A stretch of 8,368 bases of DNA from a virus. Taxonomy: Duplodnaviria; Heunggongvirae; Uroviricota; Caudoviricetes. The notes under the pieces were generated by a model that was given only the letters and a program-made list of their open reading frames with translations, made no database searches and was not told where the DNA came from. Positions 1,421 to 1,872 of the stretch are shown here, in pieces. The stretch lies in IMG/VR virus record IMGVR_UViG_2609460059_000004, one strand, 5' to 3'. The translations under genes were made by a program, and so were the position numbers. Numbering within the stretch: position 1 is the first letter of the stretch; each line of letters begins with the position of its first letter.

Positions 1421-1449
1421 TTGGCGAGGTAGCGGGAGTTAAGTAAAAT
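1421..1449 (+). promoter_or_regulatory. candidate sigma70 promoter for the hok-locus transcript
   Basis: TTGGCG (1421-1426), 17-bp spacer, TAAAAT (1444-1449); predicted start near 1456, just where the 5' complementary element begins. Confidence 0.35.
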
Positions 1450-1452
1450 TGC

Positions 1453-1461
1453 TGCGGGTGC
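1453..1461 (+). promoter_or_regulatory. 5' element of hok mRNA (tac-like) complementary to a 3' element at 1839-1847
   Basis: TGCGGGTGC at 1453-1461 is the exact reverse complement of GCACCCGCA at 1839-1847, as expected for hok mRNA 5'-3' end pairing. Confidence 0.5.
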
Positions 1462-1626
1462 TTGAGGCTATCTGCCTCAGGCATGAACACCAAAAGGCAG
1501 ATAGAGAAAAGCCCCAGTTAACATTACGCGTCTCTGCAAGACGCTTAACATTAATCTGAGGCTCAATCTATGCTGAACACATGTAGGTTAGCCTCTTACG
1601 TGCCGAAAGGCAAGGAGAAGCAGGCT

Positions 1627-1782
1627 ATGAAGCAGTAAAAGGCGATGTTAATCGCCCTGATCGTCATCGGTTTAACCGTCATAGTGACGGCACTGGTAAC
1701 GAGGAAAGACCTCTGCGAGGTACGAATCCGAACCGGGCAGACGGAGGTCGCTGTCTTCACAGCTTACGAACCTGAGGAGTAA
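1627..1782 (+). CDS. hok: Hok/Gef-family type I toxin reading frame interrupted by an in-frame TAA at codon 4 (1636-1638); a 45-codon ORF remains from the ATG at 1645
   Basis: Reads ATG AAG CAG TAA AAG GCG ATG..., giving MKQ*KAMLIALIVIGLTVIVTALVTRKDLCEVRIRTGQTEVAVFTAYEPEE. The hydrophobic TM segment plus RKDLCEVRIRTGQTEVAVFTAYE is the Hok/Gef/RelF signature. AGGAG at 1613-1617 lies upstream of the 1627 ATG. Confidence 0.8.
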
Positions 1783-1838
1783 GAGACCGGGCGGGAGAGT
1801 AATCTCCCGCCACCTCTGATATGTCAGGCATCCTCAAC

Positions 1839-1847
1839 GCACCCGCA
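1839..1847 (+). promoter_or_regulatory. 3' fold-back (fbi-like) element of hok mRNA
   Basis: GCACCCGCA, perfectly complementary to 1453-1461. Confidence 0.45.
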
Positions 1848-1852
1848 CTTAA

Positions 1853-1872
1853 CCCGCTTCGGCGGGTTTTTT
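1853..1872 (+). terminator. rho-independent terminator of the hok transcript
   Basis: CCCGC (1853-1857), UUCG tetraloop, GCGGG (1862-1866), then TTTTTT (1867-1872). Confidence 0.7.

Follow-up and report, generated by a model that had tools for sequence, protein, structure and literature searches.

An early stop codon in the toxin frame of an Escherichia coli prophage hok/sok locus with retained RNA control elements

What becomes of a type I toxin–antitoxin locus when its toxin frame is closed at the fourth codon and the RNA elements around that frame are kept? In an intact hok/sok system, a stable mRNA made from its own promoter is silenced by pairing of its 5' end (the tac element) with its 3' end (the fbi element), until slow trimming of the 3' end opens the molecule and translation of the mok leader drives that of Hok, a membrane toxin. 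Sok, a short and unstable RNA made from the opposite strand, pairs over the mok start, triggers cleavage by RNase III and blocks Hok. Here, we describe a locus of this type at positions 1421–1872 of the window, by which we mean the whole 8,368-nt stretch of DNA that was analysed. An earlier note on this sequence, whose features and coordinates were all borne out, had offered two options, namely that the toxin is inactivated with the RNA architecture kept, or that it is expressed from an internal start. We favour the first and regard the locus as a toxin-null allele with a probability of about 0.75; expression from the internal start, perhaps at a low level, is the less likely of the two.

The locus lies in a prophage, with positions 95–8253 of the window being 99.9–100% identical to a Rac-like lambdoid prophage present in E. 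coli APEC O1 and several complete genomes (~99.96% for APEC O1 and 100% for four other genomes); for positions 1–94 and 8254–8368 there was no match at the corresponding place in APEC O1 or those four genomes. The hok locus has a phage queH gene on one side and a module of the Doc family on the other, within the following gene order.

First part: replication-region genes, queH (702–1388), the hok locus, a 59-aa ORF and a Fic/Doc-family gene
Later part: DUF1367, DUF1364, a Q-like DUF1133 protein, tRNA-Thr, tRNA-Gly, lysis genes and trkG

Judged by sequence similarity, positions 1421–1872 are a hok/sok-type type I toxin locus of the hokD/hokW subtype, which upholds the earlier description of a complete hok-type locus and adds the subtype to it. 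Rfam family RF01794 matches at 1456–1632 with 119.4 bits (gathering score 59; E = 1.7e-27), the model being covered whole (1–157) with its position 1 falling on 1456. The Pfam HOK_GEF family (PF01848, cutoff 22 bits) matches the 45-aa ORF described below at 76.6 bits over positions 2–42 of 42, and the 51-aa frame with codon 4 restored at 82.9 bits; a Pfam E-value of 1e-21 speaks against a coincidental resemblance to Hok. Nucleotide identity to loci annotated hokD is 94–95%, and 5,143 E. coli records match, most of them at 90–99% identity, with hokD as the near-uniform annotation among the E. coli matches listed. When codon 4 is restored and Gly15 is returned to Cys, the frame gives the 51-aa HokD sequence MKQQKAMLIALIVICLTVIVTALVTRKDLCEVRIRTGQTEVAVFTAYEPEE. 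The ensemble of features at the locus is far beyond chance; the locus belongs with known systems, as a disrupted allele, and nothing about it is new in kind. Membrane toxicity and its neutralisation by Sok are established for the relatives HokW (PMC8621323) and R1 Hok (bioRxiv 10.1101/2025.08.07.668861), and also for HokD.

Homology and RNA folding together place the elements of the hok mRNA as follows.

1421–1449, plus strand: candidate promoter of the hok/mok mRNA, with -35 TTGGCG at 1421–1426, a 17-nt spacer and -10 TAAAAT at 1444–1449, from a consensus scan
1456–1872, plus strand: putative full-length hok mRNA of 417 nt, from a probable +1 at G1456 to an end after the U-tract
1456–1467, plus strand: tac element at the 5' end, GGGUGCUUGAGG, pairing with fbi in the MFE and centroid folds
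1470–1502, plus strand: 5' leader hairpin of the metastable type, from the predicted fold
1832–1844, plus strand: fbi (fold-back inhibition) element, CCUCAACGCACCC, pairing with tac in the MFE fold
1853–1872, plus strand: intrinsic terminator, CCCGC-UUCG-GCGGG with a U6 tract behind it, from sequence and MFE fold

The promoter had been proposed before and is the one that the consensus scan recovers; homology among hokD-type loci starts at its -35, and its -10 occupies exactly the same alignment columns as that of R1 hok, TATGAT (PMC9841398). From the alignment to R1 GGCGCUUGAGG, we infer that transcription begins at G1456. The 9-nt complementarity between the ends that the earlier note had reported is exact, positions 1453–1461 (TGCGGGTGC) being the reverse complement of 1839–1847. 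With the +1 at G1456, the first 9-mer probably begins three bases ahead of the transcript, and the pairing within the RNA would therefore be that of 1456–1467 with 1832–1844, comprising 12 bp and one bulged C. Folding of the full-length 417-nt RNA, which had been suggested as a check, brought its two ends together in a structure with an MFE of -176.6 kcal/mol (z = -8.5 relative to dinucleotide-shuffled sequences), and the long-range tac/fbi interaction is thus part of the predicted fold. The tac sequence is invariant or G–U tolerant in 90 unique relatives and is conserved in R1 as well, and fbi is conserved in the same locus alignment of 90 unique sequences. Compensatory changes among these relatives back the helices 1470/1502, 1794/1807 and 1796/1805; at the 1470–1502 pair, A–U is replaced by G–C in 12 of the 90, and also in the second of two copies of the locus in AH19B041. 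The UUCG-loop terminator, also described previously, can be read directly in the sequence and forms in the MFE fold; a simple terminator scan did not call the 1853–1872 hairpin.

On the opposite strand, two further elements were placed, the first of which the earlier note had left without a position.

1585–1613, minus strand: Sok promoter, with -35 TTGCCT at 1613–1608, a 17-nt spacer and -10 TAACCT at 1590–1585
1506–1578, minus strand: predicted Sok RNA of about 70 nt, both ends being estimates, with the start set some 7 nt past the -10

The Sok promoter was located by homology to sokW and R1 Sok; it is invariant in a seven-locus alignment and aligns with the R1 Sok promoter region, which we take to be TTGCGC / TATCCT. 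Primers YO-421/422, used to make a ‘pro-less’ sokW, replace exactly the TAGGTTA found at window positions 1584–1590, and this promoter-less mutation abolished antitoxin activity and protection from HokW (PMC8621323). The northern probe for sokW, YO-592, carries the plus-strand sequence of window positions ~1550–1579 (PMC8621323). The predicted Sok (fold -34.1 kcal/mol) would open with a single-stranded 5' tail, continue as a long hairpin between 1564 and 1509 and finish in a U-rich tail; its sequence is complementary to the part of mok that holds the SD and the start. The window has a cis-antisense Sok gene with its own promoter, and the predicted RNA overlaps the mok start region.

It is in the reading frames that the locus departs from an intact system.

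1558–1638, plus strand: mok leader, with SD GAGG at 1558–1561 and a start at ATG 1570, sharing the hok frame and cut to 22 codons
1612–1629, plus strand: hok ribosome-binding site, with SD AAGGAG at 1612–1617, a 9-nt spacer and ATG at 1627–1629
1636–1638, plus strand: premature TAA stop replacing the ancestral CAA (Gln) at codon 4 of hok, from alignment to intact loci
1645–1782, plus strand: 45-codon remnant ORF from the internal Met7, with stop TAA at 1780–1782, from the ORF list and Pfam HOK_GEF

The hok SD and ATG are conserved between hokD-type loci and R1 hok, and behind them the frame reads ATG (1627), AAG, CAG, TAA (1636–1638), just as had been noted; the full-length toxin ORF is thus interrupted at its fourth codon. 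The ATG of mok aligns with its R1 counterpart and stands 57 nt from the hok ATG, and the leader runs through the hok ribosome site, passing both SD and AUG before it reaches 1636–1638. As mok is in frame with hok at this distance, one stop ends both frames, and the ORF list and translation bear out the earlier statement that the frame opening at ATG 1570 closes at the same TAA, giving a truncated mok product of 22 aa, MLNTCRLASYVPKGKEKQAMKQ, followed by the stop. The loss of both the mok and hok products to one stop is a consequence of the in-frame mok of the hokD/hokW subtype; in R1, in contrast, mok is out of frame with hok, with 58 nt between the two ATGs.

Downstream of the stop, the 45-codon ORF keeps the toxin domain, as the earlier note had claimed, with 41 of the 42 HOK_GEF positions present. 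Its start is poorly spaced from an SD, again as claimed, the SD-like AAGG at 1639–1642 being just 2 nt from the AUG, which itself lies within the stem of a hairpin at 1641–1656 (unpaired probability 0.34). The internal Met is not the normal start of the gene, since intact relatives, R1 hok among them, use the upstream SD-AUG; another 45-aa product (P0030) does, nevertheless, begin at the same Met. RefSeq annotates 1645–1782 as a Hok/Gef family protein, WP_000903685.1, and not as a pseudogene. That 45-aa ‘Hok/Gef’ entry most likely represents a disrupted hokD-type gene, and surveys of toxic hok copies should count it as degenerate. The allele is, then, already in RefSeq under a generic name and its significance is mainly one of annotation, the gains being the corrected annotation, the placed Sok promoter and a recurrence of the same stop, described below. 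The near-complete domain of the remnant ORF and the calling of a protein by the NCBI pipeline are observations that count against the null reading.

The closest characterised relative, and a member of the same subtype, is hokW-sokW of the Sakai prophage 5 (Sp5) of E. coli O157:H7 (Takada et al. 2021, PMC8621323), which like the locus in the window lies in the early-right region of a lambdoid prophage. A hokW-like locus (L013) that carries the primer sequences of PMC8621323 has ~95% nucleotide identity to the window over ~420 nt, and the Sok promoter, the mok and hok ribosome sites and tac/fbi are identical in the two. For hokW-sokW, toxin and antitoxin activity, dependence on RNase III and Hfq, and help in phage release after mitomycin C have been established experimentally, with Sp5 release falling by half when hokW was deleted (PMC8621323). 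HokW is an intact 51-aa toxin, whereas the window has TAA at codon 4, Cys15 replaced by Gly and one extra base in the Sok loop; the C-terminal residues also differ (…FTAYEPEE in the window, …FVDYESEK in HokW), and hokW-type loci have a different 3' end without the UUCG-loop terminator that the window possesses. Another relative is hokD (relF) of the E. coli K-12 Qin prophage; the 51-aa sequence labelled HokD, which UniRef names HOKD_ECOLI, is that of the window protein apart from Q4* and C15G. Matches to K-12-type hokD extend from window position 1613 (the hok SD) onward only and lack the promoter, tac, mok and sok; the window has the full regulatory architecture with an ORF that is probably dead. 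The K-12 gene sits behind relBE.

The archetype, hok/sok (parB) of plasmid R1, has the same order of promoter, tac, leader hairpins, mok, Sok promoter, hok and fbi, belongs to the same Pfam and Rfam families and, like the window, has a Sok promoter that overlaps the hok ribosome site. Sequence blocks shared with R1 cover the 5' end of the transcript, the ATG of mok, the Sok promoter and the SD–ATG of hok, and in a three-sequence alignment with R1 the mean column identity was 77%; at the protein level, HokW is 44% identical to R1 Hok (PMC8621323). The R1 locus is plasmid-borne and acts in post-segregational killing, whereas that of the window is in a prophage. A further comparison is with the degenerate chromosomal hok loci (K-12 hokA/B/C/E, inactivated by IS elements or point mutations, and those in RefSeq), in which the toxin is likewise disabled with RNA elements still recognisable; the window differs from these in its own lesion, the Q4 TAA with two linked changes, and in its prophage haplotype. 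Pedersen and Gerdes are said to have reported in 1999 that K-12 hok loci are disrupted by IS elements or rearrangements. More recently, chromosomal hok loci have been proposed to be mostly inactive (bioRxiv 10.1101/2025.08.07.668861).

The history of the stop can be read from two sister alleles from complete genomes, L009 (K56-43-un) and L010 (N1420), which share the queH–hok–Doc arrangement, carry an intact hokD and are 99.5% identical over a 1,101-nt query (window 1100–2200). Both have CAA at codon 4, TGT at codon 15 and no insertion in the Sok loop, and because this state is common to all outgroups the three states found in the window are derived.

1533, no strand assigned: derived 1-nt insertion (plus-strand T) in the loop of the Sok / hok-leader hairpin, absent from L009, L010 and any outgroup
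1636, plus strand: derived C to T, Gln4 to stop, by comparison with the sister allele and outgroups
1669–1671, plus strand: derived TGT to GGT (Cys15Gly, T to G at 1669), from alignment

To the earlier question of whether codon 4 is normally CAA the answer is yes: it is CAA in all intact relatives compared, including six E. coli loci, and its first base is C in all of at least 120 IMG/VR loci from a pattern scan in which that base was left open. The T1533 insertion occurs in just 2 of 90 unique sequences. Over 105–3349, the window and the sister allele differ at six sites, three of them inside the 417-nt hok transcript; an excess of changes in hok was considered as a signal of selection and rejected, a binomial p of ~0.03 being too weak.

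In the alleles compared, the TAA, Cys15Gly and the Sok-loop insertion travel as one haplotype, which is rare. A 73-nt query around the stop was searched against 5,426 complete E. coli genomes, 4,548 of which contain hokD-like sequence (9,128 places in all; three in APEC O1, with a median of two per genome). The exact allele was found in seven of the 5,426 among the matches listed, a frequency of ~0.1%, and all listed matches beyond these seven have 97.3% identity, consistent with two linked substitutions; since the list skips from exact matches to those with two mismatches, no allele with a single substitution turned up in it. In a collection of 15 billion proteins, 287 contigs encode the 45-aa protein without any difference, one of these contigs being labelled E. 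marmotae. The downstream Doc module is common to all carriers read, and AH19B041 has a second copy of the haplotype in another prophage, with all three changes present and a recombination breakpoint between ~1502 and 1533. The 452-nt locus is identical in all checked TAA carriers with the queH context, and the flanks are equally so (at least 99.9%), for which reason the absence of further decay may mean only that the allele is young. That the allele shows no such decay, and that Cys15Gly cannot serve as a second hit, are to be noted as counting against the null reading. As to the latter, the Cys15 position (C16 in R1) is among the seven most conserved Hok residues, and R1 Hok C16A is still toxic (bioRxiv 10.1101/2025.08.07.668861); in HokC, according to literature data, every substitution of Cys15 remains toxic. 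Cys15Gly was accordingly rejected as a second inactivating change.

The same census bears on whether the TAA is real and effective, for an error of sequencing could have put it there, or a suppressor tRNA or recoding could carry ribosomes past it, and the window does hold two phage tRNA genes. An identical allele in seven independently sequenced complete genomes and on 287 contigs effectively refutes an error, however, while the tRNAs are ordinary ones for Thr(UGU) and Gly(UCC) and no recoding signal was seen, so that such explanations can be given next to no weight.

The three derived changes leave the predicted folds almost as they were. In the full-length fold, the C1636–G1750 pair becomes a U–G wobble under the TAA and pairing is kept, G1669 converts a U–U mismatch into a G–U pair, and T1533 adds one U–A pair, which contributes roughly -1 kcal/mol to the hok mRNA and -0.8 kcal/mol to Sok. 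The net predicted energy of the mRNA is -176.6 kcal/mol in the window against -174.3 for the ancestral sequence, and the Sok hairpin is nearly unchanged (-34.1 against -33.3 kcal/mol). The retained pairing and energy therefore suggest that the RNA architecture is intact, as the earlier note had suspected. A direct pairing of 1636 with 1669 was considered and rejected, since each of them has another partner in the predicted fold, 1750 for 1636 and 1694 for 1669.

In the toxin-null reading, then, a single C-to-T transition has converted hok codon 4 from CAA to TAA, and the same TAA terminates the in-frame mok as well, which would leave ribosomes with MKQ or a 22-aa leader peptide as their only products. 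The promoter, tac/fbi, the mok and hok ribosome sites, the Sok promoter, the predicted Sok hairpin and the terminator are all retained, making this a clean natural example of a type I toxin gene probably knocked out by one transition with every RNA control element in place. In favour of this reading, nonsense mutation is how Hok would be expected to be lost. Of the 20 nonsense codons that one step can create in R1 hok, 18 were recovered as suppressors of toxicity, and a hok stop-codon construct was non-toxic (PMC9841398; bioRxiv 10.1101/2025.08.07.668861). Alleles with internal stops are a recognised class of degenerate hok and account for 2.6% of the unique CDSs in RefSeq (bioRxiv 10.1101/2025.08.07.668861).

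The opposing view is that ribosomes ending at the TAA (1636–1638), whether on the 22-codon mok remnant or on the three-codon hok remnant, restart at AUG1645, 6 nt downstream, and make a 45-aa Hok without MKQQKA, so that the module would go on working as a toxin–antitoxin pair with a weaker toxin. Termination–reinitiation is common in bacteria within tens of nucleotides of a stop (PMC5972666), translation of mok still crosses the hok ribosome site, and the remnant ORF holds nearly the whole HOK_GEF domain, with its one substitution at a position, Cys15, that tolerates change. Against a restart, the strong SD-AUG1627, 9 nt upstream of the stop, can recapture terminating ribosomes and would compete for them with AUG1645, whose SD-like AAGG is too close and whose AUG is held in a hairpin stem. 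The product would also lose both N-terminal lysines, and an R1 Hok with K2E was undetectable as protein (PMC9841398). A second 45-aa product from the same Met (P0030) and a haplotype that has reached 287 contigs and two different prophage backgrounds argue for a restart, but an allele frequency of ~0.1% does not, and on balance we hold it to be unlikely. Should the truncated peptide be made and be active, it would add modestly to the known ways of attenuating type I toxins.

A third possibility accepts the dead toxin and asks what Sok might still do. It could have been kept to neutralise the hokD/hokW-type mRNAs of other prophages, resident or incoming, as a form of anti-addiction or cross-immunity, which is compatible with the toxin-null reading. 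The Sok promoter and predicted hairpin are intact, the region targeted by Sok is nearly invariant among hokD-type loci, carriers hold further hokD-like copies, as the count for APEC O1 illustrates, and an anti-addiction role of chromosomal toxin–antitoxin loci has been discussed (bioRxiv 10.1101/2025.08.07.668861). There is, however, no signal of selection, conservation of the locus in carriers being no higher than that of its flanks; the allele is rare, and intact loci provide the same Sok RNA, all of which makes a dedicated antitoxin role improbable, if possible in principle.

Lastly, the same stop occurs on a second hok background. TAA at codon 4 is found in three IMG/VR contigs, one with the window haplotype and two, L023 and L024, whose hok locus differs from that of the window at 48 of ~410 positions (12% divergence). 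These two keep Cys15 and carry a further stop in the mok frame, a CAG changed to TAG one codon ahead of the ATG of hok. On so divergent a background, the TAA either arose independently or was moved by a very short conversion tract. Together with the presence of the haplotype in two prophage types, this could be taken as recurrent retuning, in which the codon-4 stop sets either a low-level, lysine-less 45-aa Hok made from AUG1645 or a Sok-only cross-immunity element; we consider this quite unlikely. The arrival of the same TAA on this background would likewise speak for a restart at AUG1645, but the second nonsense codon in the mok of L023 and L024 looks like decay, and chance alone would be expected to bring the recurrence about. 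Among the first six hok codons, only Q3 and Q4 can become nonsense codons by one C-to-T step, so a return of TAA at codon 4 is not surprising. Taken together, the IMG/VR loci from these scans contain one further nonsense allele, at Gln38.

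The stop at codon 4 of hok, where the ancestral CAA has become TAA, is also present in a second hokD-type allele, approximately 12% divergent from that of the window and carried by two IMG/VR contigs (L023 and L024), in which the promoter and the tac/fbi pairing between the 5' and 3' ends of the hok mRNA are kept. This allele has a further stop in the mok leader reading frame, a CAG-to-TAG change one codon upstream of the hok ATG.

L023, about 8800-9300: second hokD-type allele with the codon-4 TAA
L024, about 2200-2700: second hokD-type allele with the codon-4 TAA

The full three-change haplotype, namely the codon-4 TAA, Cys15Gly and the 1-nt insertion at 1533 in the Sok hairpin loop, occurs twice in E. 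coli AH19B041, in different prophage backgrounds (L005 and L020), and the two copies have a recombination breakpoint within the hok leader, between about window positions 1502 and 1533. Further degenerate hokD-type products are recorded among the protein clusters: a 46-aa form whose membrane helix has a 5-residue deletion (P0007, 30 contigs) and, in a different background, another 45-aa product that starts at Met7 (P0030, 4 contigs).

Within the window, the locus lies between a prophage-borne queH and a 59-aa ORF followed by a Fic/Doc-family gene, with two tRNA genes situated further downstream.

702-1388: queH, epoxyqueuosine reductase (Pfam QueH, 220 bits), immediately upstream of hok
1991-2674: 59-aa ORF, then Fic/Doc-family gene (161-164 aa), directly downstream of hok
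4967-5120: tRNA-Thr(UGU) and tRNA-Gly(UCC), flanked by the Q-like antiterminator gene and the lysis genes

Only some of the hokD-type prophages have queH joined to hok in this way. The 59-aa ORF has no Pfam match and its neighbour is annotated in RefSeq as a death-on-curing toxin; the two probably form a type II toxin-antitoxin pair, which would put two addiction-type modules next to each other here. Neither tRNA qualifies as a suppressor.

Positions 95-8253 match complete E. coli genomes at 99.9-100%, and in those same genomes the window ends (1-94 and 8254-8368) find no match. One consequence is a premature end of the trkG-like ORF (7190-8275), which comes to 361 aa, the trkG of APEC O1 being 1,458 nt long. 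The unmatched ends are either a mosaic boundary or the mark of a source genome absent from the collection.

RF01794, the 'sok' model of Rfam, has its match at 1456-1632 on the sense strand, from the hok mRNA leader through the hok AUG, and not on the strand giving the Sok transcript; the match strand is not to be taken as that of the Sok gene. The window's allele, most likely dead, also keeps a TACG at 1765-1768 (the Tyr47 codon TAC and the next G), the motif at which hok mRNAs are described as undergoing A-to-I editing by TadA (Tyr to Cys).
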